From Candidatus Aminicenantes bacterium (GTDB lineage: Bacteria; Acidobacteriota; Aminicenantia; Aminicenantales; Saccharicenantaceae), in the NCBI GenBank assembly GCA_963727095.1, contig CAVSEQ010000005.1, positions 534,952-598,951 of the forward strand: 64,000 bases of DNA. Reading direction: 5' to 3'. Position numbers and translations under genes: made by a program. The notes under the pieces were generated by a model. It was not told where the DNA came from. It saw only the letters and a list, made by a program, of their open reading frames with translations, and ran no database searches. Every line of letters starts with the position of its first letter. Position 1 is the stretch's first letter. This document shows, in pieces, positions 1-14,841 of this stretch.

Positions 1-1516
1 CCATGTCCGCATCGGCGCTGGCGACCGTATAGGCGCCGGCGGCGCCGATGATGGCGGCCCGCTTGAGCTGGGTCGGGTCGGCTTTGTCGACGACATCGCC
101 CGACGTGTGATACCACTTATCGGGCCAGGCGATCATCATGATCCCCGGAACACCGACGCCCCAGTCGTTGAACACCTCGTGGTCGGAGGCGCCATAGTGG
201 GTTTCGATCGAATAGGGGAACGGCTCATCGGCGCCGTAGGGCGCCACGATGCGGACCGGAACGACCCGGCCCGGCGTGCTCCGGTTCTGCAGCCTCTCAC
301 GGTTGGCTTCCCCGACAAACCGGTAGTAATTTTCCATAACATCGTTGATAAAGTGCGGATTGCCGTAGGTCGTCCGCATCAGGCAAAAGAAGGACTGGTT
401 TTTCGAAAGCCACTCGCCGACCATGTCCATATTGATGTTGCAGAGGGTCTTTTCCATGATCTTCTGGTTGGCCTGGACCCATTTGCCGATCCCCGAGAAC
501 TCGGGTCCCCAGATGAAACGGATCGTCCGCTTCGGCTTCGGCAGACGGCCATCGGCGATGAGGGTGTTGAGGATGCGGGCCACTTCGAGAATCGTGGCGC
601 TGCCCGAGATGTTGTCGTTGGCGCCCTGCTTGTTGAAACCTTCGAAGAGATGGGCCGAAAGGATAACCCCCTCGGCATCGGGATCGGTGCCGGGAATGCT
701 GCAGACGACGTTCTCGAGGTCGGCCGTCTCGTATTTGGATTCGACTTGGGCGTGGACCGTGATCTTTTCGCCCGCGAGGAGGCGGCGCTTGAGGAGATCG
801 CCCTCTCGGGCCGAAAGCTGGAAGCCGAACTTCGGGGGCTGCGGCTTGGCCGCGGGTTGGCCGGGCTGGCCCGCCGGCGGTTCAAAGCCCATGCCGCGCA
901 TGGAGATGCCGCTCCACGGCATCTGCAGCGGGTCGAAATAAGGGCGTGACATGGCGATCGCGACAACCCCCAGGGCGCCTTGCTGCACGGCGGTTCCGTA
1001 GGCCATCATCAGGCTTCCCTCGGTGACGACGATCTTGCCCTCGACCTTGGCGTCGACGATGTCTTTCGCGACGCCGCGGCCGACCCAGACGAGGTCCGCG
1101 GTGACGTCGGCGCTGCCGCTTCCCGCGGCCAGCGACGGGAGGATGTCGCGGATGGACGCCAGCTTCGCGCGGCCCGGCTTGACCTCCCAAAGCTCGCCCT
1201 TGATGGCCCGCCAGGCTTGGCCGCCCGGATAGGCGGCAACGTCGACCCCGGCGAGGCCGTACTGTTTCAGCTTGTTGACGACGACTCGGGTCTCAAAAAA
1301 TCGCCCCGTATATTCATCGTCGGTGCGCTCGCGGTTGAAGGCGTTGATCTCCGCGATGGTGTTCCAGGCCGTTTCCCCCGAACTTTCTCCGACGATCTCG
1401 TCCATCTGGCTCTTGGGCAGGAACGTCCAATAGAGCCAGGGCGTGTACTGGGCGAACATCGGCACGGATAACAGGACGACAGCAAGACAAACAAGCCCCA
1501 GCGGCCTTTTCGACAT
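1..1516 (-). CDS. Exported M28-family metallopeptidase with PA-like insert (3' end runs off the window)
   Basis: ATG at 1516 with AGGAGG RBS; signal peptide MSKRPLGLVCLAVVLLS; motifs GANDNISGSA, GPEFSG, NINMDMVG, GASDH, WYHTSGD; frame stays open to base 1. Confidence 0.85.
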   Translation of the reverse strand, partial: MSKRPLGLVCLAVVLLSVPMFAQYTPWLYWTFLPKSQMDEIVGESSGETAWNTIAEINAFNRERTDDEYTGRFFETRVVVNKLKQYGLAGVDVAAYPGGQAWRAIKGELWEVKPGRAKLASIRDILPSLAAGSGSADVTADLVWVGRGVAKDIVDAKVEGKIVVTEGSLMMAYGTAVQQGALGVVAIAMSRPYFDPLQMPWSGISMRGMGFEPPAGQPGQPAAKPQPPKFGFQLSAREGDLLKRRLLAGEKITVHAQVESKYETADLENVVCSIPGTDPDAEGVILSAHLFEGFNKQGANDNISGSATILEVARILNTLIADGRLPKPKRTIRFIWGPEFSGIGKWVQANQKIMEKTLCNINMDMVGEWLSKNQSFFCLMRTTYGNPHFINDVMENYYRFVGEANRERLQNRSTPGRVVPVRIVAPYGADEPFPYSIETHYGASDHEVFNDWGVGVPGIMMIAWPDKWYHTSGDVVDKADPTQLKRAAIIGAAGAYTVASADADM

Positions 1517-1620
1517 AACGACCTCCTCGTTTGGGCGCGGCTGCGTACCCACGCACGCCCGGGCGAAAAATATGAATTTTAGGATATATACCTAGCACCG
1601 GGGCATGTCAACAGGCGGGC

Positions 1621-1932
1621 CGGCAGGGAGCGGCAGGGAGCGAGGTTTTCGGAGCGACCATTAAAAGTGCGGCTGAGCGACTCGAAGCCGCACTTTTAAG
1701 AAACATCTTAGAACAGGTCTTACCTCTTGGCCTCACTGGTGGGAAAGATCTTGAAACGCGTTTCTGATCTTTCTTCGGCACGGAGCGGCAGGGAGCGGAT
1801 TCTCGGGAGCGACCAACAAAAGCGTGGCGGAGCGGCACGGAGCCACGCTTTTGGGATGTATCTGAAATGGGTTCTGGGGCTTTCTCAACGCCTCACTGAT
1901 GGGAAATATCTTGCACGACTCTTTGATTCTTC
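1621..1932 (+). repeat. Two tandem ~155-bp units of an intergenic palindromic mosaic family
   Basis: Head motif CGGCAGGGAGCG..GGAGCGACCA at 1631 and 1786, each followed by a perfect 12-14 bp hairpin and then CCTCACTG(G/A)TGGGAAA(G/T)ATCTTG. Confidence 0.85.
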
Positions 1933-1967
1933 TCATAGCCGAACCGGCCCGGTCGGAAACGCGGCGG

Positions 1968-2546
1968 TCAGTCCTTCGCGACCTCCCCGATCAGAAGGAC
2001 CGTCCGGCCCCTGACCTCGTTCAGGACTTCGGCCATGGCCAGATAGATGGCGGACAATCCGCATGCGATGCCTTCGAAGCCGGCGATCTTCCCGACAACC
2101 GCTGAGCCGGTCCAATCCCTGGCCGCAAGCAGCCAAAAGAGCACGGTCAGGCTCAAGAAAACGAACTGGACGACGCGGTTCTTGCCGAATGTCCCCAGCC
2201 ACATGAAGAACGTGAAGAGTCCCCAAAGGAATAAGTAGCAGCCCATGAACGGAGCGGGGGTGGCCGCACCGCTGGGAGCGTTCAAGCCTGGAATGACCCA
2301 AATCGCGACGATCGTCAGCCAGAACAGTCCGTACGACGTGAATGCCGTCGTCCCGAAGGTGTTCCCTTTCTTGTATTCCATGATGCCGGCGATGATCTGG
2401 GCGATCCCTCCGTAAAAAATCCCCATGGCGAGAATCACACTGCTCACGGGGAAGAAACCCGCGTTATGAATGTTGAGAAGGACGGTTGTCATGCCAAATC
2501 CCATCAGTCCGAGCGGGGCGGGATTGGCAAGCGTATTGTTGTCCAT
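1968..2546 (-). CDS. satP: Acetate/succinate uptake transporter, SatP/YaaH (GPR1/FUN34) family
   Basis: LANPAPLGLMGFGMTT signature, GNTFGTTAFTSYG, about six hydrophobic helices. Confidence 0.92.
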   Translation of the reverse strand: MDNNTLANPAPLGLMGFGMTTVLLNIHNAGFFPVSSVILAMGIFYGGIAQIIAGIMEYKKGNTFGTTAFTSYGLFWLTIVAIWVIPGLNAPSGAATPAPFMGCYLFLWGLFTFFMWLGTFGKNRVVQFVFLSLTVLFWLLAARDWTGSAVVGKIAGFEGIACGLSAIYLAMAEVLNEVRGRTVLLIGEVAKD

Positions 2547-2624
2547 AGCGATGTTCCTTACGAGTGGGATAGGAGTCGGAGCCGTATAGTATGTCCGGAC
2601 AGTCCGAATTGTCAACAAAAGAAG

Positions 2625-2673
2625 GGGCCAGGTCTATTTTTTGCTACTTTTTGGCAGAAAGTAGACCTGGCCC
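2625..2673. repeat. Inverted-repeat element (GGGCCAGGTCTA...TAGACCTGGCCC), probable bidirectional terminator after fbaB
   Basis: ~20-bp imperfect arms with T-rich tails on both strands; near-identical inverted copy at 9061-9109. Confidence 0.75.
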
Positions 2674-2681
2674 TTTTTTAT

Positions 2682-3732
2682 TTAGGCGATTGTGACGTCC
2701 TTGTCCGAATAGACGTCCTGGACGGCGTTGAGGAGCTCGATGCCGTCCTTCATGGCTTTTTGGAACGATTTTCGTCCCGTGATCAACCCCATGCCGCCGG
2801 CGCGCTTGTTGATGACCGCCGTGCGGACGGCCTGGGCCAGATCGTTCTTGCCGGACTCGCCTCCCGAATTGATGAGGCCCGCCCGGCCCATATAGCAGTT
2901 GATGACCTGGTAGCGCGTCAAATCGATCGGATGGTCCGTCGTCAATTGGGTATAGACGCGATCGTCCGTCTTGCCGAAGCCGAGGGCTTTGAACCCGCCG
3001 TTTGTTTCCGGCTGCTTTTGCTTGACGATGTCGGCCTGGATCGTCGCCGCCAGATGGTTGGCCTGGCCCGTCAGGTCGGCGGCCAAGTGATAATCCTTGT
3101 CCTTCTTAAATGCCGCGTTGCGAAGGTACGCCCAGAGAACGGTCACCAGGCCCAGGCTGTGGGCATGGCTGAACGCTTCGCTGACCTCGCTGATCTGCCG
3201 GTCGCTCTCGGCCGAGCCGAAATACACGGTGGCGCCCACGGCCACGCCGCCCATGTCGAAGGCCTGGTCGACTGACGCGAATTGGATCTGGTCGTACTTA
3301 TTGGGGTAGGTCAGGAGCTCGTTATGGTTGATTTTCAGGATGAACGGTATCTTATGGGCGTACTTGCGGGCGACCGATCCGAGAACTCCCAATGTCGAGG
3401 CAACGGCGTTGCAGCCGCCTTCGACGGCCAGCTTGACGATATTCTCAGGGTCGAAATAGATGGGATTGGCCGCAAAAGCCGAACCGGCCGAATGTTCGAT
3501 GCCTTGGTCCACGGGCAGGATAGATAAATATCCGGTCCCGGCCAGGCGGCCGGTGTTGTAAATTGTCTGCAGATTTCTCAGAACGGCCGGGGGCCTGTCC
3601 GTTTTCGCGAGGACCCTGTCCACGAAATCCGGCCCAGGCAGGTGGAGGAAGCTCTTGTCGACGGTTTTGCACATCGTGGCCAAGTAAATTGTCCGCCTCG
3701 GAGCCCAGAAGCTGTTTCGTTTTTTCATTCAT
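2682..3732 (-). CDS. fbaB: Class I fructose-bisphosphate aldolase (DhnA/FbaB type); apparent +1 frameshift near 3674
   Basis: [39 protein letters not shown]; natural N-terminus [19 protein letters not shown] lies in another frame. Confidence 0.9.
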
Positions 3733-3879
3733 GGCCCACCCCCGAAGTTCCCCGGCCTGAGAGCCCGTGCCGCCTCCCTTTTACACTTAGCCTTACCGTC
3801 TTCCGGACGCTGCGCCGCGCTCCGGCCAGTCCACTCCGCCCAGCCCGGGTCACGCCGCGCGGAAATCGGACCGAGACCG

Positions 3880-4365
3880 TCACTTCATTTCGACTTTGAC
3901 CTCATTCAGCCAGATGCCGTGGATGTTGCACCGCTCAGTGGCTTTCAAAACGTCCGGCATCGACTTCAGGTCGAAGGTAGCAACCGGCGCGGGGTCCGTC
4001 GCCTTGAAGGTTTTCTCGCCGAGCTTGTTGCCCATCCCGTCCTCGAGCCTGATCCACATGATCCAGTGCGGCTTCTTGGGATCCATCGGATGATTGTCGA
4101 CCTTGACCGTAACCTTCATGCCCATGCCCGCCATCTCGTAATTGACCTGGGGGACATGCGTCTGCGCGACCTGGGCGTTCCAGGGTCCGAAAAAGTCCTT
4201 CGTGTACGGCTTATCCTGCTTGTACTCGCCGGCGGCCTGGCCGCTCATCTGAGCGAGGCTCGTGCCTCCCGCGGGGACCGCCGACTTGTCGCGCGACGTG
4301 GGCGTCAAAAAGACGACCGTCGCCACGAAAACCACCGCGAAAAAAAGAATACTGCGATACTTCAT
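3880..4365 (-). CDS. 1Fe superoxide reductase (neelaredoxin)-like protein with N-terminal signal/anchor
   Basis: THVP, HPM..PHWI, RCNIHGIW give 4 His + 1 Cys; hydrophobic N-terminus; AGGAGG RBS. Confidence 0.8.
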   Translation of the reverse strand: MKYRSILFFAVVFVATVVFLTPTSRDKSAVPAGGTSLAQMSGQAAGEYKQDKPYTKDFFGPWNAQVAQTHVPQVNYEMAGMGMKVTVKVDNHPMDPKKPHWIMWIRLEDGMGNKLGEKTFKATDPAPVATFDLKSMPDVLKATERCNIHGIWLNEVKVEMK

Positions 4366-4620
4366 ATCACCCCTCCTGTTGCCGGGTTCTGCCGCCCAGC
4401 GCATTTCCAATATAGCAGAATCCGCGCGAATTTCCAGACCCCCGCCGGCTTGATCCTTCGAGATAAACGCAGACCTTCTTAGCCGGTTTTGAGACACCGC
4501 GAGAAAATAAGGCCTCTAGAATCCTGAAAAAAAGTGCATGCTATTCACGGCCGTCAGGCCCCGTCGCCATAAATACGCAAGCGCGAAAATCAACCCGATG
4601 GCGCACACAGGCGCCCCGGG

Positions 4621-5082
4621 TTACTCGTCGCAGGGTGGGCAGACTTCGAGCAGGCTGATCTTGGCCAGCCGACGCGCGAACCGCTCCTCTCCGCTGTATC
4701 GTGCCTTCAGGAAAGTTTGAATCAGGTCCCACGCCAGAGCATGGCCGACGACACGGCCGCCGAGGCACATGATATTCATGTCGTCGTCCTCAACTCCTTG
4801 ATGGGCGGAGAACCCATCGTGGATGAGCGCCGCGCGGGCGCCCGCGACTTTATTCGCGGCGATGGACGCGCCGACGCCGCTTCCGCAAACGGCAAGGCCG
4901 CGCTCGACCTCCCCCGCTGCTACGGCGCGAGCCAGCGGGACGATATAATCAGGATAGTCGTCCCCCGCCTGCCATTGTGTCGCGCCGAAGTCCCTGATAT
5001 CGTGCCCGTCCGCCCTCAGGAGCTCAACGATCTTTTGTTTCAGCTCGAATCCGCCGTGATCACAGCCGATACCGATTTTCAT
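4621..5082 (-). CDS. rpiB: Ribose-5-phosphate isomerase B
   Basis: MKIGIGCDHGGFELK, DDYPD, CGSGVGASIAANKV. Confidence 0.92.
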   Translation of the reverse strand: MKIGIGCDHGGFELKQKIVELLRADGHDIRDFGATQWQAGDDYPDYIVPLARAVAAGEVERGLAVCGSGVGASIAANKVAGARAALIHDGFSAHQGVEDDDMNIMCLGGRVVGHALAWDLIQTFLKARYSGEERFARRLAKISLLEVCPPCDE

Positions 5083-5153
5083 GTTCCCCTCCGCGGCTCT
5101 ATTATACCCGAATTCCGCCGCAGAGACGGGAGGCGGAGACGACCCCGAGGCCT

Positions 5154-6401
5154 TTACATGCCGTACTTGGCGATAATCTCCTGCTTCGTCTTGCCCAGGA
5201 TGTCGAACTTCTTGCCGACCTTGATAAAGGCGGCCAGGGCTTTGTCGAGATGATGGATTTCGTGCCCGGCCGAGATCTGCGTCCGGATCCTGGCTTGCCC
5301 CTGCGCGACGACAGGGAAGAAGAAGCCGATGGCGTAGATGCCTTCGTTGTAAAGCGCCAGCGAAAAATCCTGGGCCAGTTTGGCGTTGAAGAACATGACG
5401 GGCACGATCGGCGTGTCGCCTTCCTTGAGGACGAAGCCGGCTTCCGTCAGGCCCTTGCGCCAGTAGGCGGCGTTCCGCTCGAGCTTGTCGCGCCGTTCCG
5501 TGGACTTGGAGAGGATTTCCATGACCTTGAGGACCCCGGCGACGACGACCGGCGCGATCGTGTTTGAGAAAAGATACGGCCTGGCCCGCTGCCGGCACAA
5601 CTCGACGATCTCGCGGCGGCCGGAGACGCAGCCGCCCGACGCGCCCCCGAGGGCCTTGCCGAACGTCGTCGTGATGACGTCCATTTTGCCCACGACGCCG
5701 CATTTCTCGTGCGTGCCGCGGCCGGTTTTCCCGATGAATCCGCTGGAGTGCGAATCATCGACGAGGATCATGGCGTCGTACTTTTCACAAATGGCGGCCA
5801 TCTCGTCGAGCTTGGCCGTGTCCCCGTCCATGGAGAAAACGCCGTCCGTGACGACCATCTTGAGCCGTTTGTCCGAATGGAGCTGCAGTTTCTCCTCGAG
5901 ATGCCCCATGTCGGAATGCTTGATCGTATCATGCATGGCGCTGCAAAGACGGATGCCGTCCACGAGCGAGGCATGGACCAGACGGTCGGAGATGATGACG
6001 TCGTCCTTGGTCAGGACGGCCTCGAAAACGCCGGCATTGGCGTCCATGCAGGAAGGGAACAGGAGCGTGTCCTCGGTTCCCAGGAATGCCGTCAGCCGGT
6101 GCTCGAGCTCGCGGTGGATGTCCTGAGTGCCGCAGATGAAGCGGACCGACGACATGCCGTAGCCGCGGGTGTCCAGCCCTTCGTGGGCCGCCTTGATGAC
6201 GTCGGGGTGGCTCGAAAGCCCCAGATAGTTGTTGGCGCACATGTTGATGACTTTTTTAAGCGGAGCACCGGTGGGAAATTCGACTTCGATGTCGGCCGCC
6301 TGGGGCGAGTGGATGAACCGCTCCTGCTTGAACAGCCCGGCGTCCTGGATGGCCTTAAGCTGGCCCTGATACGTTTCACGAACCTTGTTGCTGTAACCCA
6401 T
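5154..6401 (-). CDS. kbl: Glycine C-acetyltransferase (2-amino-3-ketobutyrate ligase), PLP-dependent alpha-oxoamine synthase
   Basis: CANNYLGL, SVRFICGTQDIH, TDGVFSMDG, DDSH, TFGKALGGASGG, RPYLFS. Confidence 0.9.
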   Translation of the reverse strand: MGYSNKVRETYQGQLKAIQDAGLFKQERFIHSPQAADIEVEFPTGAPLKKVINMCANNYLGLSSHPDVIKAAHEGLDTRGYGMSSVRFICGTQDIHRELEHRLTAFLGTEDTLLFPSCMDANAGVFEAVLTKDDVIISDRLVHASLVDGIRLCSAMHDTIKHSDMGHLEEKLQLHSDKRLKMVVTDGVFSMDGDTAKLDEMAAICEKYDAMILVDDSHSSGFIGKTGRGTHEKCGVVGKMDVITTTFGKALGGASGGCVSGRREIVELCRQRARPYLFSNTIAPVVVAGVLKVMEILSKSTERRDKLERNAAYWRKGLTEAGFVLKEGDTPIVPVMFFNAKLAQDFSLALYNEGIYAIGFFFPVVAQGQARIRTQISAGHEIHHLDKALAAFIKVGKKFDILGKTKQEIIAKYGM

Positions 6402-6479
6402 GATGTCGACTCCTTATGTCAAGCGGGACGCGGACCCGGGGGGACATGTCCCCATTGTTCCTTCCGCGTCCCTTTTTCC

Positions 6480-6737
6480 CTAGCCCTTTTTCGCGACGAA
6501 CTCTTCGACGAGCTTGACGATCTTGTTGACCGAGTCGAAAGCCTCGGGCGTCGCCTTGTCGTCGGGGATCTGGATCTGATACTTGTTCTCGAGGAATCTT
6601 TTCAACGAGACCATCGAGAACGAGTCCACGATGCCGCCCGATATGAGAGGGGTATCGTAGGTGAGCGGCTCGCTGTCATCTTCGAGATATTCCTTGGTGA
6701 CGTAGGTGAGAACGATGTCCTTCAGGTTTTCCGCCAT
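6480..6737 (-). CDS. Stand-alone acyl carrier protein
   Basis: 85 aa, acidic; GIVDSFSMV phosphopantetheine-Ser motif. Confidence 0.88.
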   Translation of the reverse strand: MAENLKDIVLTYVTKEYLEDDSEPLTYDTPLISGGIVDSFSMVSLKRFLENKYQIQIPDDKATPEAFDSVNKIVKLVEEFVAKKG

Positions 6738-6800
6738 GATCGCGTCTCCTTATCGATATTTCAGAGGGAACACGTACCGCTGGTACATGTCCCCGTCGAT

Positions 6801-8504
6801 CTAATCATTTTCGAGGGTCGATGTGTCGCCGATCTCCTCACCCCACTCCTTGGCGTGGAGAATCCGCCGCATGATCTTGCCGCTCCGAGTCTTCGGGAGC
6901 GACGGCACGAATTCGATCTCCTGCGGCATGGCCAGCGGTGAGAGTTTCTTGCGGATGAAGTTCATGATCTCGAGGTCGAGGTCCTGGCTGGCCGTAAATC
7001 CCGGCTTCAAGGCCACGAACGCCTTGACGACTTCGAGGTTGATCGGGTCCGGCTTGCTGACGACGGCCGATTCGGCCACGGCCGGATGCTCGAGCAGAGC
7101 CGATTCGACCTCGAACGGGCTGACGAGGTGGCCGGCCGTGTTGATGATATCGTCGTCGCGGCCGGCGAACCAATAGTAGCCGTCCTTGTCGAGCCGGGAC
7201 CGGTCCCCCGTGATGTACCAACCGTTCCGGAACTTTTTCTGGAAGGCTTCCTGGTTGTTCCAGTACGTCCTCATCCTCGAAGGCCAGTTGAACTGGAGGG
7301 CCACAAGACCGATCTTGCCGTACGTCGCATAGGGCTCGTTTTTGACCGGGTCGAGGATGGTGCCCGTAATGCCGGGGAACGGCTTGCCCATGGAGCCCGG
7401 CCGGACCTCCATGCCTGGATAATTGCTGATGACGATGCAGCCGGTCTCGGTTTGCCAGTAAGTGTCGTAGAAGGGCTTGCCGAAGACTTTCTGGGACCAG
7501 ACGACGGCTTCGGAGTTCAGTGGTTCGCCGACGCTGGCCAGGTGGCGGAGCGAGGAGAGGTCGGACTTTTTGACGATCTCGTCGCCGGCCTTCATCAGCG
7601 AGCGGATGGCCGTCGGCGCCGAGTACCACATCGAGACGCGCCGTTTCTCGATGAACTTGTACCAGGATTCGGCGGAAAAGCCCGCGTCGAGGACGCACTG
7701 CGTTACGCCCAGCGCGAACGGGGCGATGATCCCGTACGATGTGCCCGTGACCCAGCCCGGGTCGGCCGTGCACCAATAGATATCATCGTCCCTGAGATCA
7801 AGCACCCACCTCGCCGTAAGGTACTGCGAAATGAGTGAATAATGCACATGCTGAACGCCTTTCGGCATCCCGGTCGTCCCCGACGTATAGTGCAGGACCG
7901 ACGGCGTTTCCGCCTTGGCCGGATAGATATCGAAATGTTCGACGGGCGCGGCCTTCTCAAGTGAGAACGGGACCTCCCGGTTCTTAAGCGGCGTGACACC
8001 GTCGTGATCGACGATGATGATGTGCTTGAGATGGGGCAGCTTGTCCAGGATCTTGCGGACCTTGGGGGCGTGCTTCTTTTGCGTTATCACGGCGGTTGTC
8101 TCCGCGTTCGAAAGCCGGACGAACAGCGATTCGTCGCCGAAGGCCGAAAACAGCGGCTGGGCGATGGCGCCGGTCTTGAGAATTCCCAGGAAACCGAGGT
8201 AAAGCTCCGGAATCCGGTCCAGGAACAGGCAGACCCGCTCGCCCGGCTGAATGCCCAGCCCGCGCAGGAAGGCGCCAATGGTATTCGTCGCCAGCCGGAT
8301 GTCGTTATAGGTGTAGGTTTTTTCCACGCCGGTAAAGCCTTCCCAGTAGAGCGCGGTTTTGGCGCCCTTGCCAAGCTGGCAGATCCGGTCCGTGCAGTAC
8401 CAGCCGATGTTGATAGTGTCGCCGGGCTTATAGCCGAGCTCCTTCTCCGCGATGGCCCACGAGAAGTTTTTAACCCGATCGTCGTATGAGCCGATGTTTG
8501 ACAT
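6801..8504 (-). CDS. acsA: Acetate--CoA/carrier ligase (short AcsA-type adenylate-forming enzyme)
   Basis: YTSGTTGMPKG, TADPGWVTG, SVGEPLN, DTYWQTETG, PKTRSGKIMRR. Confidence 0.85.
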   Translation of the reverse strand: MSNIGSYDDRVKNFSWAIAEKELGYKPGDTINIGWYCTDRICQLGKGAKTALYWEGFTGVEKTYTYNDIRLATNTIGAFLRGLGIQPGERVCLFLDRIPELYLGFLGILKTGAIAQPLFSAFGDESLFVRLSNAETTAVITQKKHAPKVRKILDKLPHLKHIIIVDHDGVTPLKNREVPFSLEKAAPVEHFDIYPAKAETPSVLHYTSGTTGMPKGVQHVHYSLISQYLTARWVLDLRDDDIYWCTADPGWVTGTSYGIIAPFALGVTQCVLDAGFSAESWYKFIEKRRVSMWYSAPTAIRSLMKAGDEIVKKSDLSSLRHLASVGEPLNSEAVVWSQKVFGKPFYDTYWQTETGCIVISNYPGMEVRPGSMGKPFPGITGTILDPVKNEPYATYGKIGLVALQFNWPSRMRTYWNNQEAFQKKFRNGWYITGDRSRLDKDGYYWFAGRDDDIINTAGHLVSPFEVESALLEHPAVAESAVVSKPDPINLEVVKAFVALKPGFTASQDLDLEIMNFIRKKLSPLAMPQEIEFVPSLPKTRSGKIMRRILHAKEWGEEIGDTSTLEND

Positions 8505-8524
8505 GAATGCCTCTCTCCTCCGTG

Positions 8525-8908
8525 TTATGGCGCCGCTTTTTCAAGGACCACGACGGCCTTGGCCAGGTCCTTGATATGGGACAACGAAGCTTCCATTCCG
8601 GTTATGCCGTGCGCATCGCAAAATTCACGGACCTTGCCGTGGACAAAGAGTTCCGGCTTGCCCAGGGCGTTGTTGACGATCTCAATCTCATCGAATCGAT
8701 GCCCGCCTGTCCAGCCGGTCCCCATCGCCTTGAGGAACGACTCCTTGGCCGCGAAACGGGCCGCGAAGTGCATGGCCGGGCGGTGCTTGGACTCGCAGTA
8801 TGCGATCTCCCGCGCGGTGAAGAGCTTTTGCTTGAGCCCGCCCGTCCGGGAGAGCTTGTCCTCGATCCGCTCGACCTCGATAATGTCGGTCCCGACTCCG
8901 AAAATCAA
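8525..8908 (-). CDS. acpS: Holo-ACP synthase (AcpS-type PPTase)
   Basis: IFGVGTDIIEVERI, FAARFAAKES, SLSH; probable TTG start at 8908. Confidence 0.9.
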   Translation of the reverse strand: MIFGVGTDIIEVERIEDKLSRTGGLKQKLFTAREIAYCESKHRPAMHFAARFAAKESFLKAMGTGWTGGHRFDEIEIVNNALGKPELFVHGKVREFCDAHGITGMEASLSHIKDLAKAVVVLEKAAP

Positions 8909-9007
8909 CCGCGTCAGCGCCTTTCGTTTTCGAATGCCGCGTGCCCGGGACGGTGCCGTCCCGGACAGCCCGGTGGTGTCTTCCTGGCCAAGGGAAAACG
9001 GAACATT

Positions 9008-9035
9008 ATTATAGATAACGCGCGCCAAATGTCAA
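9008..9035 (-). promoter_or_regulatory. Sigma70 promoter for acpS-acs-ACP-kbl
   Basis: TTGACA-16 bp-TATAAT on the minus strand. Confidence 0.75.
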
Positions 9036-9060
9036 AGCCGGGCGGCGCCCCTCCAAGAAG

Positions 9061-9109
9061 AGGCCAGGTCTACTTTCTGCTAAAAAGTAATGAAAAGTAG
9101 GCCTGGCCT
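9061..9109. repeat. Second copy of the GGCCAGGTCTA inverted-repeat element
   Basis: GGCCAGGTCTACTTTCTGC is identical to the reverse complement of the 2654-2672 arm. Confidence 0.75.
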
Positions 9110-9134
9110 CTTCTTCATTGACCGCTTATCAACC

Positions 9135-9521
9135 TTACAGGCTGTCGATGACTTTGTTGAGTTTGGCCCGGACTTCCTGCCCCAAGGGCTCGAGAGCCGG
9201 GTTCCCGACGGCCTGCATGGAGGCCACAGGATCGATGGCCGCGACCTCGATCCGGCCGTCCGCCGCTTCCTGGACAATGACATTGCACGGCAGCATCAAA
9301 CCGATCTTGTCCTCGGCCAGGAGCGCCTTGTACGCGAACGGCGGGTTGCAGGCACCAAGGATTCGGTAATTCCGGAAATCGGCATTCATTTTCTCTTTAA
9401 GTGTTTTCCTGACGTCGATCTCAGTCAGGACGCCGAATCCTTCTTTCTTGAGCTCCGCCTTCACCTTGTCGACGGCCGCGTCGAACGGTCCGTCGATCAG
9501 TTTACTGATGTAGTAACTCAT
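9135..9521 (-). CDS. DUF302 family protein
   Basis: [26 protein letters not shown]. Confidence 0.88.
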
Positions 9522-9609
9522 CTCAAGGACCTCCCCTTATAAGCATTCGGCCAATGAACGGGGCCATTATAGGGGCAACTCCGGGAAAAGCAAGGGCGCC
9601 TCAGCGCCG

Positions 9610-10371
9610 TCAGGGCTTTCGGCCTAGGAGCCCGAGGGCGTCCTCTTCCCCAAGGTAATGATAGCCTACTAGACGTCCATTAAAAACGATATTGAAGACT
9701 CCGTACGGTGAGGGGGATCGGGCTTGGACATCAGCGGCCGTCCGGAATCTGACAACGCGGGCCTTTATCTTTTTCCTCGACGCCGCATCCAAAAGAATCT
9801 GACACGCGTCCGGATGATAGGGGCATTGGCCCGAGCTGAGAATCGTCAATCCATTGCCGAACCGCTCGGCGCGCGCGGCCCAATCATGAGGAAAAGAAGG
9901 TTTTGGACCCTGCTTGAGCTTCTTGACCATCAGAGTGAAGGAAGGCGGCGCGGAGTCGATGGCTTTGAAGCCGTGGCCTTCGAGAAGTTTTTTCCCGGCC
10001 AGCCAATTTCCCTCGCTCGTCACCATGGCCACTCCAAGCATCCCGGCTTTCCTGGCGTCTTTGACACATTCATCGAGGAGCGCGGCCCCGAAACCCTTTC
10101 CTTTGCTCTTCCCTATGACCCAGAGGCAATGAATGACCATATAGCCCGCGGCATTCACGGCCCGCCAAGCGAATTCGCCGGGGATATACTCGATAAAGCC
10201 GCGCTCCGGCAGCTTGAGCATTTTGATCCGCATCCCCTCATCGAACCGCTCCCTTGCCCAGGCGACCTTGCTGAGAAAGCCCTCAGACTTCCGCTTGCTC
10301 ATGTAACAGAAGAAGCCCGTCTCCTCGACATTCGAGCGGTCAACCGTGATAATCTCTGTCTTCTCCGTCAT
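9610..10371 (-). CDS. GNAT acetyltransferase with C-terminal YoaP-like domain
   Basis: FIEYIPGEFAW, IHCLWV..KGKGFG, QCPY, PSPYG. Confidence 0.82.
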   Translation of the reverse strand: MTEKTEIITVDRSNVEETGFFCYMSKRKSEGFLSKVAWARERFDEGMRIKMLKLPERGFIEYIPGEFAWRAVNAAGYMVIHCLWVIGKSKGKGFGAALLDECVKDARKAGMLGVAMVTSEGNWLAGKKLLEGHGFKAIDSAPPSFTLMVKKLKQGPKPSFPHDWAARAERFGNGLTILSSGQCPYHPDACQILLDAASRKKIKARVVRFRTAADVQARSPSPYGVFNIVFNGRLVGYHYLGEEDALGLLGRKP

Positions 10372-10579
10372 TTTCAGCACCTTTCGGGACCCGGACACGG
10401 ACACCCTCGCCGCCATTTTAACCCAGGTCACCCGTGGCTGCTAGAGGAGGGAGCAAGCGCGGAGGTGCTCCTTAGGCCCTCCCCGAAATTTCTTTTGCCT
10501 GGCTGGCACGTGACCGCTATAATCGGACAGGCGATCCGGCTTGGCGCCGGCGCCATTTTAGAAAGGGAAATCAATCGTC

Positions 10580-11782
<1,203 letters not shown>

Positions 11783-11898
11783 TCCGGGGACACAATATCC
11801 ATTCCCTATTTTGTCTGCCCATAACAGATATCGAGGAGCAATTCCGGAAGCAGGTACTGAATTCCGAATTTCCCGCAGGATTTCGCCGGATCTCGACG

Positions 11899-12671
11899 CT
11901 ATTTCCGGTGGACCAGCGTCACCGAAGCTTGGGCCGTCGGCATAACGATCATCTCGCTGACGTTGACGTGGGGCGGACGTGTCGCGCACCAAACCACGGC
12001 ATCGGCGATGTCGTCAGGCGAGAGCGGCGTCAGCCCCTGATAAACCTTGCCGGCACGCTCCCCGTCGCCGTGGAACCGGACAAGACTGAATTCCGTCTCG
12101 ACCATGCCCGGGGCGACTTCGCTCACGCGGATGGGGGTTCCGTTGAGGTCGAGCCTCAGCCCGCGCGTCAGGGCCCGCACCGCGAATTTCGTCGCACAGT
12201 AGACGTTGCCGTTCGGATAGACCTCGTAGCCGGCGATGGAGCCGATGTTGATGACGTGGCCGGCCCCGCGCGCAACCATGCCCGGGATAACCGCCCGGCT
12301 GACGTAGAGCAGGCCTTTGATGTTCGTGTCGATCATCTCTTCCCAGTCGCTCACAAGACCCTGGTGCAGTTTATCGAGCCCGCGGCTGAGGCCGGCATTG
12401 TTGACCAGGACCTCGATCGCCCGCCATTCCTCGGGCAGCGATGCGACCGCCTTGTCGACGGCCGGCTGGCTGCGGACGTCGAGCGCGAAGTGATGGACAG
12501 GAACGCCGAATTCCTTCCGGAGTTCGCCGGACCAGTTTCTAAGGCGGTCGGCGCGCCGCGCGCACATTAGGATCCTCGACGCCTTGAGCGGCAAATGCCC
12601 GTGCACAGGACTGTCCAATTCCAGCAGCTCGCGCCGCTGACGAAAACGACTTTATCTTTCATGGAATACAT
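11899..12671 (-). pseudogene. YdfG-like NADP-dependent 3-hydroxy-acid SDR; 5' end broken by several single-base indels
   Basis: VNNAG, NIGS, YCATK, PPHVN intact; MKDKVVFVSGAS and AGIGQSCARAF lie in two other frames. Confidence 0.8.
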
Positions 12672-12894
12672 GTTCGCTCTCCTTGTGTTTCAGATGATCG
12701 GATCTAACTGAACTGAGCCTCCACGATGGCGTCGAACATCAGCCGATATAACCCTAACTTCACTCATGGCCCAAGGATATCGAATCGCAAGCACGGTTGT
12801 AAAGCCGCAACCCGGCATTGGCGGCCGCCGCACCTTTCGAAAGGGCAAACAAAACATGATGTCCGGGGCCGGACCGATCGGGCTTGCGACCCGG

Positions 12895-12923
12895 TTGCTT
12901 CGGCCCTCCGCCGGGTTTATACT
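12895..12923 (+). promoter_or_regulatory. Sigma70-like promoter
   Basis: TTGCTT-17 bp-TATACT upstream of GTG 12940. Confidence 0.55.
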
Positions 12924-12939
12924 TTGCTCGAGACCTAAC

Positions 12940-13182
12940 GTGGTTCCGCAGATACCGTACAGAGCGATCGGGATCGGGCTCGGGCTCATCCTCGGCATTT
13001 GGGCGTTTGCTCATGCCGAGACGAGGGGGAAGGCCATTATCGCCGCGGCGATGGCCGTTCTTTTCTTCCTGCCGGTCCTCATCCGGACCTCATGGGCCTC
13101 GACGTTCAGCGGCATCGGCTGGGCGCTTCTCGGCGTGGCGAGCTATGTCTATTTGCGCTGGGCGGGCGTCGCGATTCGATAG
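12940..13182 (+). CDS. Small membrane protein (about 3 TM)
   Basis: Hydrophobic 80-aa C-terminal part of ORF 12766-13182; start inferred from promoter position. Confidence 0.6.
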   Translation: MVPQIPYRAIGIGLGLILGIWAFAHAETRGKAIIAAAMAVLFFLPVLIRTSWASTFSGIGWALLGVASYVYLRWAGVAIR

Positions 13183-13194
13183 AAGGAGGGGGAA

Positions 13195-14841
13195 ATGACA
13201 ACAAAATCCATTCGGCGGCGGGATTTCCTGGGATCGATGCTGGCCGGGCTTCCGCTCGTATCGCTCGATTGGGCGAGCTTTCCGCGGGGCCCGCAAAGCG
13301 CGGCCGACCGGAAACAGGGCGGGAACGACTATGACGCCGTCATCATCGGCGCCGGCCTGGGCGGCCTGAGTTGTGCCGCGGCCTTCGCGCGCCAGGGCTT
13401 CCGGCCGCTCGTCCTGGAAAAGCACATCAAGCCGGGCGGCTATGCCACGACCTTTCATCGTCCCGGGGGTTTTGTGTTCGATGCCTCGCTGCATTCCACG
13501 ACCGTCTCGGCCCGAAACGGCGTCTTCGACCTCATTCCCGGTTTCCCCGAAATCCAGGGCATCGAGTTCGTGCCTCACCACACCCTCTACCGGGCGATCT
13601 ATCCTGACTACGACATCCGCGTCCCGGAACGGAATCTCCCCGCCTACGTCGCCGATCTGGTCGGCAAGTTCCCCGATGAGAAGGCCGGGATCGAAGGATT
13701 GTTCGACGATATGAAGGGGCTCTCGGCCGACATCAGCAAGCTTGCCGCCGCCGGGGACCGCCCTAACATGACCCACTTCGTCCAGGACTATCCTTATCTC
13801 GCCAAGACCATGGGCAAGGCCTGGGGGGCCATGGTGGACGCCCGCCTCAAGAACCCCAAGCTCAAGGCCATCGTCTCCGCACAGTGTGGCTATTTCGGAC
13901 TGCCGCCGTCGAAGCTTTCTCCATACTATTTCGCCCTGCCCACGATCGCTTATCTCGAGAACGGCGGGTTTTATCCGGTCGGCAAATCCCAGAAGATCTC
14001 CGATGCTTTCACGAAATTTATCGAGGACCACGGCGGCAAAGTCATGTTGAGGTCACGAGTCGACAAGATCATCGTGAAAAACGGCGCCGCCGTCGGCGTC
14101 AGGACGACCGATGGCCGGGAGTTCACGGGAAAGGCCGTCGTTTCAAACGCCAACGCACCCGACACGTTCAAGAAAATGCTCGACGAGCCGGACCTCGTCA
14201 AGGCGACCCTGGCCAGGATGGAGAAGCTCAGCATCAGTCTGTCTTCATTCCAGGTCTTCCTCGGCTTGAAGAAAGATCTCCTCCGGGAGCTCGGCATCAA
14301 GGACAGCGAGATCTTCTATAACACCGGCTACGACGTCGAGGAGGATTACAAGGCGATGGTCCGTGGGGATTTCACGAACCCGGGCTTCGGCGCGACCCTC
14401 TACGACAACTTGTACAAGGGCTACTCCCCCGACGGGAAGAACACGCTGTCCATCATGACCCTTCAGGGCTTCGAACACTGGGAAAAGTACACGGACGACT
14501 ATCTTGCCGGGAAAAAGGACGCCTACAATGTCGAGAAGCAGCGGATGGCCGACATCCTGATCGACCAGGCCGAGAAGGTCTTGTTGCCCGGGCTTCGCAA
14601 GGCCATCGAGGTCCGGGACGCGGCGACCCCTCTGACCAACCTCCGCTACACCGCAAACACGCGGGGGGCCATTTATGGCTGGGACCAAACGCTCGACGAC
14701 TCGGGTCCGTCGCGATTCCCCCAGCGGACGCCCGTCAAGAATCTCTATCTCGCCGGCGCCTGGACTTTCCCAGGGGGCGGATACGGCGCCTGCATCCCGA
14801 GCGGCCTTTTGTGCTTCGCCGAAATCATGAAAAGTTGGTGA
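13195..14841 (+). CDS. FAD-dependent phytoene-dehydrogenase/retinol-saturase-like oxidoreductase with Tat signal
   Basis: SIRRRDFL; IIGAGLGGL; ATPLT..RYT...GAIYG; LYLAGAWTFPGGG. Confidence 0.85.
   Translation: MTTKSIRRRDFLGSMLAGLPLVSLDWASFPRGPQSAADRKQGGNDYDAVIIGAGLGGLSCAAAFARQGFRPLVLEKHIKPGGYATTFHRPGGFVFDASLHSTTVSARNGVFDLIPGFPEIQGIEFVPHHTLYRAIYPDYDIRVPERNLPAYVADLVGKFPDEKAGIEGLFDDMKGLSADISKLAAAGDRPNMTHFVQDYPYLAKTMGKAWGAMVDARLKNPKLKAIVSAQCGYFGLPPSKLSPYYFALPTIAYLENGGFYPVGKSQKISDAFTKFIEDHGGKVMLRSRVDKIIVKNGAAVGVRTTDGREFTGKAVVSNANAPDTFKKMLDEPDLVKATLARMEKLSISLSSFQVFLGLKKDLLRELGIKDSEIFYNTGYDVEEDYKAMVRGDFTNPGFGATLYDNLYKGYSPDGKNTLSIMTLQGFEHWEKYTDDYLAGKKDAYNVEKQRMADILIDQAEKVLLPGLRKAIEVRDAATPLTNLRYTANTRGAIYGWDQTLDDSGPSRFPQRTPVKNLYLAGAWTFPGGGYGACIPSGLLCFAEIMKSW

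Follow-up and report, generated by a model that had tools for sequence, protein, structure and literature searches.

A conserved ligase, carrier protein and Kbl-type synthase in an Aminicenantes operon: a possible carrier-dependent variant of the Tdh/Kbl pathway

The operon and its protein products

The window analysed here is a stretch of 64,000 nucleotides from a 92.8%-complete metagenome-assembled genome (MAG) of Aminicenantes (G000:C5:534952-598951). Its minus strand carries an operon of four genes, namely acpS, a gene for an AMP-forming acetate-type ligase, a gene for a stand-alone acyl carrier protein (ACP), and kbl, whose product is a Kbl-type alpha-oxoamine synthase called Kbl1 (Table 1). 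The original prediction, made from the sequence alone, had proposed that the ligase loads acetate onto a dedicated carrier and that Kbl condenses the resulting acetyl-ACP with glycine. Its account of the layout holds: open reading frames (ORFs) and their translations place the phosphopantetheinyl transferase (PPTase), the ligase, the DSF-bearing ACP and Kbl on one strand with gaps of 20, 63 and 78 bp, within the 20-80 bp first given. The near-consensus promoter ahead of the genes and satP downstream on the same strand were likewise recovered. Fab or polyketide synthase (PKS) genes had been said to be lacking, and the layout is as described over positions 1-14000 of the window, which the fab/PKS annotation covered; the genome's canonical acpP lies about 53 kb past the window end.

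The ligase exceeds, narrowly, the curated cut-off for acetate--CoA ligase (NF003313, PRK04319; 746.7 bits vs 729), and the solved structure nearest to it is 9g79 (Acs, 572 aa; B. subtilis AcsA), at 566 bits. The acetate pocket of S. enterica Acs (2p2f) is retained, V252/T253 corresponding to V310/T311, V325 to V386 and W350 to W414; W350 is the pocket tryptophan of the DTYWQTETG motif to which the original prediction had drawn attention. Also kept are Lys543, the equivalent of the catalytic and acetylated Lys609, and Arg518, the equivalent of Arg584. Among 83 distinct cluster ligases W350 is present in 75 and replaced by Phe in 8, and K543 is present in 81. Judged by its retained pocket, the ligase would activate acetate.

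Two departures from S. enterica Acs are evident in the alignment. The ligase is gapped at the Arg191/Arg194 loop, and Leu460 takes the place of Arg526 (S. enterica numbering) in all 83 cluster ligases, the position being Arg in three aligned solved Acs. In PMC10455477 the Arg526-equivalent residue is described as highly conserved and as stabilizing the thioester-forming state, and the R528A variant of M. thermautotrophicus Acs is described there as unsaturable for CoA. Leu460 is a weak pointer only, because 24 of the 67 nearest representatives of 500-700 aa share the leucine, and on the same count its candidacy as a unique signature of ACP loading was rejected. The cluster ligases form a tight group, since among full-length 50%-cluster representatives even the nearest share no more than 50% identity with the ligase; 222 of its 567 positions are at least 98% conserved among the 83.

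The 85-aa carrier has no Pfam match (PF00550 included) at E<=0.001, and all of its NCBIfam matches are sub-threshold; the top one, ACP_for_OlsHI, reaches 56.3 of the 130 bits required. Its AF2 model (pLDDT 83) has a helical carrier fold in which helix 39-52 begins at Ser39. The top Foldseek matches are PigG (TMq 0.87), PltL (0.83), DltC and aminoacyl carrier protein (range 0.69-0.87), and a profile search against the PDB returned the same carriers, all of which receive their load from stand-alone adenylating enzymes. Ser39 and the helix that follows it, SFSMVSLKRFLENKY, are invariant in 32 ACP sequences. With a pI of 4.5 the protein is less acidic than the genome's AcpP and has Lys-Arg where AcpP is acidic. 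A complex prediction for two Kbl1 chains and one ACP scored 0.13 against a mark of 0.32, and counts neither way on binding.

Outside the window, G000:C1:102860-106957 contains another small ORF of ACP type, which matches over 54 residues at 37% identity and has an in-frame TAA inside the matching stretch. About 2.4 kb from it is an AMP-binding ligase that shares 28% identity with that of the cluster, and an alpha-oxoamine synthase 35% identical to Kbl1 is found 44 kb away (G000:C1:58163-59209). The set may be a separate acyl-carrier module.

Kbl1 passes the curated models for Kbl (NF005394/TIGR01822), with 564.4 bits against 460 for NF005394 and 559.2 against 493 in addition, and scores 433-453 bits against solved Kbl structures. 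The pyridoxal phosphate (PLP) machinery is intact: K249, H143, D215, H218 and R373, which we take to be the equivalents of the E. coli residues, are invariant across an alignment of Kbl1 with canonical Kbl. A sphingolipid or BioF reading was rejected, as serine palmitoyltransferase (SPT) and BioF models fall far below their cut-offs (three SPT models gave 230-306 bits against 500-670) and the ligase pocket is acetate-sized.

Kbl1 differs from canonical Kbl, a second gene for which stands beside the cluster in 30 of the 98 loci compared below. Three canonical copies of 396-428 aa score above Kbl1 on the Kbl model (582-625 bits), and between 76 cluster Kbl1 sequences and 26 canonical copies 11 positions are fixed differently. 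These include F115/P116/C118/M119 and V142, which adjoins the invariant H143; several lie by the PLP-stacking His. Kbl1 also has a 5-aa N-terminal insert and a conserved, Lys-rich C-terminal tail of 17 aa. In a tree of 58 sequences, kept small by dropping half of the Kbl1 entries of 415 aa and every entry from the relatives' loci, Kbl1 forms one clade (SH-aLRT 100) with a stem of 0.46 and short internal branches. By these comparisons Kbl1 is a separate, slowly evolving paralog clade outside the canonical Kbl orthologous group. Three canonical kbl copies that coexist with the cluster (G023:C104:8067-9251, G013:C2:415846-417030 and G038:C12:190723-191907) each contain one in-frame stop in the match, which could reflect gene decay or assembly error.

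The acpS ORF is listed at 9028-8525; its start is likely the TTG at 8908, because the family match begins at residue 41 of the long ORF. The product scores 63 bits on PF01648 and 88.7 bits on TIGR00516 (cut-off 59.8). It is encoded by the only AcpS-type gene of the genome, the other PF01648 match being confined to a 261-aa open frame at C5:835320, and in an assembly of this completeness acpS is therefore not dedicated to the operon. A dedicated PPTase was thus rejected for this genome but holds in some others. Of five genomes labelled as other phyla, the operon acpS is the sole AcpS-type gene in 1 and an extra copy in 2, and the remaining 2 have a single AcpS elsewhere and none adjacent to the cluster. 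AcpS identity across lineages is 37-86%, which is ordinary divergence.

Table 1. Features of the operon and its downstream genes (window positions)
Feature	Position	Strand	Basis and remarks
Sigma-70-type promoter, TTGACA-16 nt-TATAAT	9008-9035	-	12/12 hexamer positions match; ~93 nt upstream of acpS start
acpS, holo-ACP synthase, 127 aa from TTG	8525-8908	-	PF01648, TIGR00516
AMP-forming acetate-type ligase, 567 aa, short B. subtilis AcsA type	6801-8504	-	NF003313
Stand-alone carrier protein (ACP), 85 aa, DSF motif, Ser39 in GGIVDSFSMVSLKRFLE	6480-6737	-	Predicted fold and profile matches
Kbl1, Kbl-type alpha-oxoamine synthase, 415 aa, PLP lysine K249	5154-6401	-	NF005394
rpiB	4621-5082	-	71 bp 3' of kbl, no terminator-like site in gap; possibly co-transcribed
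satP, acetate/succinate channel	1968-2546	-	NF038013, 271.7 bits vs cut-off 50; own promoter-like site 2615-2588

Conservation of the module and its interpretation

Conservation was followed in 98 loci, of which 18 come from relatives and 80 from an ACP-pattern scan of species-representative genomes, a scan in which at least 586 of at least 598 stretches were confirmed. At least 6 contigs, recognized by their identical lengths, are common to the two locus sets, and many loci come from closely related genomes, so that the counts are not independent. The original prediction had set conservation of gene order as its own test, and the ligase-ACP-Kbl1 trio is complete in 90 of the 98 loci, including loci labelled Bacteroidales, Zixibacteria, Ignavibacteriales, Delongbacteria, Cloacimonadales and other Acidobacteriota. 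ACP and Kbl1 stand together in 95, the other three stopping at a contig end, and acpS adjoins the ligase in 75. Contig ends cut four of the eight incomplete loci (L040, L060, L090, L105). In other classes of the phylum the trio is kept in 9 of 12 further loci, at 56-76% identity, and the carrier itself is 56-95% identical across cluster-bearing lineages. Of 41 relatives, 32 carry both genes of the ligase-ACP pair and 6 lack the two; G028 and G036 have the ACP alone, and G035, which is 83% complete and has its ligase at a contig end, has the ligase alone. At E<=1e-60 the cluster-less relatives yielded no other Acs-type gene. The comparison supports the view that ligase, ACP and Kbl1 are a conserved unit.

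Kbl1 may also be linked to threonine dehydrogenase. The absence of tdh, noted in the original prediction, is true of the window and not of the genome. No Zn-type Tdh above cut-off is encoded in the genome (best 188 bits vs 458, all matches falling outside the window), but contig C2 carries a short-chain dehydrogenase/reductase (SDR)-type L-threonine 3-dehydrogenase (444 bits to solved TDHs). SDR-Tdh is found in 40 of the 41 relatives, and tdh homologues occur in 12 of the 98 loci; in four of these, labelled Zixibacteria or Ignavibacteriales (L069, L072, L103, L110), the homologue immediately precedes acpS. Each of five cluster-less relatives has one canonical Kbl (58-60% identical) located 2-9 kb from tdh. 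Kbl1 is the only Kbl (E<=1e-90) in 19 cluster-bearing relatives, this genome among them, and 13 have both types. Because Kbl1 is the sole Kbl in so many Tdh-bearing genomes, it appears able to stand in for canonical Kbl alongside Tdh, and because SDR-Tdh is present in this genome, in its relatives and in some of the loci, the module is seen as a variant of the Tdh/Kbl pathway and not as a separate one.

The reading preferred here, to which about half of our belief is given, is that the operon encodes an ACP-dependent version of the Tdh/Kbl link between threonine, glycine and a C2 unit. AcpS would turn the 85-aa carrier into its holo form, and the ligase would adenylate acetate and pass the acetyl group to the carrier's pantetheine thiol, the presumed acceptor, to give acetyl-ACP. 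Kbl1 would then catalyse the reversible reaction acetyl-S-X + glycine = 2-amino-3-ketobutyrate + HS-X, with acetyl-ACP replacing acetyl-CoA, and SDR-type Tdh would join 2-amino-3-ketobutyrate to threonine. External acetate could enter through SatP or ActP-like carriers and be activated by ATP, whereupon the swinging arm would hand the acetyl group to Kbl1; the ATP cost would drive an unfavourable condensation and spare the acetyl-CoA pool. The most economical reading is that the carrier is the thiol linking ligase and Kbl1. The carrier-protein route first proposed thus keeps, on sequence grounds, its conserved unit, its distinct Kbl paralog, its carrier-type ACP and its acetate pocket, and loses the dedicated PPTase and the absence of tdh.

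Several observations weigh against an acetyl-ACP route. No pathway gap demands it, as the genome has Pta and AckA as well as two thrC genes above cut-off. Since thrC is present twice, a new threonine route, one of the outcomes that the original prediction had offered, is not needed. A bypass of threonine auxotrophy was accordingly rejected as a necessity, and the operon as sole acetate-thioester route was rejected on account of ackA and pta; a search for a PduL-type enzyme found none. SDR-Tdh is found in cluster-less relatives as well, and the leucine at the Arg526 position is not cluster-specific. Which thiol accepts the acetyl group, whether Kbl1 takes acetyl-ACP and which way the flux runs are matters of inference, and the taxon labels are drawn from the titles of MAG records and may be wrong. 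Four loci (L027, L028, L074, L096) have ACP and Kbl1 without a ligase, and in two of the genomes concerned (93-94% complete) none was found at E<=1e-30; because such loci exist, acetyl-ACP would need another source or sink in them. Finally, both enzymes lie above the NCBI curated cut-offs for acetate--CoA ligase and glycine C-acetyltransferase, and the neighbours are those of an acetate-handling enzyme. Thus, satP is present in 27 of the 98 loci and follows kbl directly in many relatives, a Pat-like ADP-forming-ligase/GNAT protein in 15 and a porin-like beta-barrel in 23 (L022, L066 and L108 among them), Bacteroidales-labelled loci included, and L107 has an ActP/MctC-like symporter gene upstream of its ligase. 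These genes fit, as expected, an acetate-handling enzyme whatever its thiol acceptor.

Because both enzymes pass models built on CoA enzymes, ordinary CoA chemistry is a serious rival, if on balance an unlikely one. The ligase would then be a normal acetyl-CoA synthetase that scavenges acetate, Kbl1 a CoA-dependent enzyme working with Tdh, and the carrier, for example, a regulator or an unrelated acyl carrier. The nearest solved structures are a bona fide Acs and Kbl, Lys543 and Arg518 are retained, Pat-like, SatP and ActP-like proteins are what one expects near an Acs, and acpS is the housekeeping copy in this genome, all of which would follow naturally from such chemistry. It leaves unexplained, however, a carrier gene that lies between the two enzymes in 90 of the 98 loci and is never parted from Kbl1 save at contig ends, with its invariant Ser39 helix and its range of identity across lineages. 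It also leaves unexplained a Kbl1 that is a fixed, distinct clade and is kept beside canonical Kbl, and a ligase that, save for one contig-end case, is restricted to ACP-bearing genomes among the 41 relatives.

The ligase-less loci bear as well on the direction in which an ACP-dependent route would run. Having ACP and Kbl1 without a ligase is easier to understand if Kbl1 makes acetyl-ACP, as it would in a catabolic scheme wherein Tdh oxidizes threonine, Kbl1 and holo-carrier yield glycine and acetyl-ACP, the reversed ligase step (acetyl-ACP + AMP + PPi -> acetate + ATP) conserves ATP, and SatP exports acetate. The linkage of tdh to the cluster, the 19 relatives in which Kbl1 is the sole Kbl, and the anaerobic character of the cluster-bearing lineages, as judged from record titles, are in keeping with this scheme, and an AMP-forming Acs running towards ATP is documented in Syntrophus aciditrophicus. 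The S. aciditrophicus enzyme is reported to have a CoA-binding loop, whereas the cluster ligase is gapped at the Arg191/Arg194 loop. Pta and AckA already give ATP from acetyl thioesters, and no sign of a PPi supply was found. ActP-like symporters and Pat-like regulators go with acetate uptake in E. coli and Salmonella. Taken as a whole the catabolic scheme is distinctly unlikely; it stays in play because some loci lack the ligase and because Syntrophus offers a precedent for an Acs running in reverse. For the preferred ACP-dependent link, the acetate-consuming direction is slightly favoured, since uptake-type transporters are adjacent and the ATP-to-AMP drive and swinging arm would aid condensation.

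Genus g11, represented by two genomes, has acpS, ACP and Kbl1, but a search at E<=1e-30 found a ligase nowhere in it. An IS200-like transposase (L028:9302-10006, minus strand) adjoins acpS in one of these genomes, which hints at loss of the ligase by rearrangement.

The distribution of the cluster is patchy, ACP being found in 32 of 301 genomes in an even sample of the phylum. Its ACP is 58-73% identical to those of other classes of the phylum and 75-85% identical to those of records labelled Bacteroidales, Zixibacteria, Delongbacteria and others. Because the ACP is closer to other-phylum records than to those of its own phylum's classes, the comparison suggests that the cluster has moved between phyla, with the proviso that MAG labels may be wrong. 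Patchiness and signs of transfer would also suit a small-molecule pathway in which acetyl-ACP and glycine give 2-amino-3-ketobutyrate and thence, by decarboxylation, aminoacetone, leading to aminopropanol or pyrazine-type signals, and the combination of ligase, carrier and alpha-oxoamine synthase is typical of specialized lipid or metabolite clusters. Such a pathway is nevertheless very improbable. When all flanking ORFs of the 98 loci were clustered to find recurrent partners, none was present in more than 16 loci beyond canonical kbl, satP, and the porin-like, Pat-like and tdh genes, so that no recurrent tailoring, export or regulator genes were seen. In addition, the unusually high conservation of all three proteins (as in the ligase) would fit core metabolism better, and Kbl1 replaces canonical Kbl in 19 relatives.

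A bolder version of the ACP-dependent link can be offered, although it is on the doubtful side. Ligase, carrier, Kbl1 and SDR-Tdh might form a channelled acetyl-ACP shuttle set apart from the acetyl-CoA pool, coupling external acetate and glycine to threonine, or running in reverse to conserve ATP. This C2 module for assimilation or fermentation, so far unrecognized, might have passed horizontally between anaerobes of sediments and digesters that belong to several phyla.

Flanking genes and repeats

Past kbl the order on the same strand is rpiB, a desulfoferrodoxin-like gene, a class I aldolase gene and satP. An rpiB gene adjoining the cluster was not found in the other loci, and rpiB is not conserved with the module. 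The desulfoferrodoxin-like ORF (3880-4497, minus strand, 205 aa) has only the C-terminal iron-binding domain, at 40 bits against a cut-off of 62, and lies between kbl and satP in some relatives too (e.g. L013, L044).

Directly upstream of the operon is an ORF of 128 aa (9135-9521, minus strand) that is present in 7 related loci and has no family match; we take it to be DUF302-like. Beyond it, a 273-aa ORF (9610-10431, minus strand) has a weak GNAT match of 23 bits. A YdfG-like short-chain dehydrogenase gene lies 3 kb upstream of the operon on the same strand (11899-12618, 246 bits vs a cut-off of 411); the other loci showed no such gene close to the cluster. In E. coli, YdfG takes 3-hydroxy acids and L-allo-threonine as substrates. 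The porin-like protein of this genome is encoded about 10 kb before the window (G000:C5:523801-525054; L118:3772-5058). It has 420 aa, a signal-peptide-like start, an aromatic end and a weak DcaP match (25.6 bits, below the Pfam cut-off), in the manner of an outer-membrane beta-barrel, and the next gene after it is that of formate--tetrahydrofolate ligase.

Between positions 1800 and 9700 a scan picked out 10 promoter-like sites, where shuffled sequences gave 2.8 on average. No Rfam family reached its gathering score in the 93-nt leader of the operon or elsewhere in the window, and a riboswitch in the leader was rejected for this reason. A palindrome of about 50 nt (core GGCCAGGTCTAC..GTAGACCTGGCC, flanks AAGAAG/CTTCTT) occurs at 9050-9100 and 2626-2672, directly upstream of the promoter-like sites of acpS and satP respectively, the hairpin at 9050-9100 also following the presumed DUF302-like gene. 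It is found at dozens of intergenic sites throughout the genome, where a 12-mer search allowing at most one mismatch gave 142 matches, many of which pair up as arms of a single copy. The palindrome may be an element resembling the repetitive extragenic palindromic (REP) or miniature inverted-repeat transposable element (MITE) type, with a terminator role. A shared operator upstream of acpS and satP was rejected, the two hairpins being copies of this scattered palindrome.

Relation to known systems

Kbl and Acs are textbook CoA enzymes. If the ACP-dependent reading is right, a widespread pair of their paralogs would use a dedicated carrier instead, and automatic annotation as 'acetyl-CoA synthetase' and 'glycine C-acetyltransferase' would give a wrong picture of how many uncultured anaerobes handle acetate, glycine and threonine. 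The scale is given by the at least 586 ACP-pattern stretches in species-representative genomes, and metabolic models of Aminicenantes, Zixibacteria, Bacteroidales and others depend on such annotation. The logic of ligase, ACP and alpha-oxoamine synthase known from sphingolipid synthesis would then extend to a C2 unit in central metabolism. The hypothesis is directly testable, as it concerns four small soluble proteins. Searches of full-text literature outside the subscription journals returned no description of a two-carbon ligase, ACP and alpha-oxoamine synthase tied to Kbl/Tdh.

The Tdh/Kbl pathway itself (E. coli 1fc4, Cupriavidus 7bxp) is a near relative, in that Kbl1 exceeds the Kbl equivalog cut-off and shares the PLP lysine, and that the genome has an SDR-Tdh. 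The module departs from it in the Kbl1 clade, with its 11 fixed substitutions, insert and tail, and in the carrier gene that is always adjacent and the ligase and acpS genes that usually are. AMP-forming Acs (B. subtilis AcsA, 9g79; S. enterica Acs with Pat; E. coli acs-actP) resembles the cluster ligase in the 566-bit match to 9g79, in the pocket, Lys543 and Arg518, and in having Pat-like, SatP and ActP-like neighbours. Unlike these enzymes, the cluster ligases form a tight group with Leu for Arg526 in 83 of 83, and among the 41 relatives occur only with ACP, save for the one contig-end case.

The carrier finds its best fold and profile matches in systems such as PigI/PigG, PltF/PltL, DltA/DltC and glycine:[carrier protein] ligase with its carrier, and here too an adjacent adenylate-forming enzyme is the presumed loader. 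Carriers of the PigG, PltL and DltC type hold amino acids, however, and are loaded by A-domains or enzymes resembling aminoacyl-tRNA synthetases, whereas the neighbour here is an Acs-type enzyme with a predicted acetate pocket. A precedent for ATP-dependent acetylation of a carrier thiol exists in CitC and MadH, the acetate:HS-ACP ligases of citrate lyase and malonate decarboxylase. Both differ from the cluster ligase in protein family, and their target is a modified prosthetic group inside an enzyme complex; the annotated flanks showed no genes for citrate lyase or malonate decarboxylase.

A parallel in overall design is provided by the serine palmitoyltransferase modules of Caulobacter and Sphingomonas, which include an acyl-ACP synthetase and a dedicated ACP. 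Like the present operon, bacterial SPT modules combine an adenylate-forming ligase, a small dedicated carrier and an alpha-oxoamine synthase. Kbl1, in contrast, scores below the SPT cut-offs, the pocket of the cluster ligase is closed, contains Trp and is of acetate size, not long-chain, and ceramide-pathway genes were not seen in the annotated flanks. The long-chain sphingolipid version of a ligase, dedicated ACP and alpha-oxoamine synthase is already known; the two-carbon version appears to be new.

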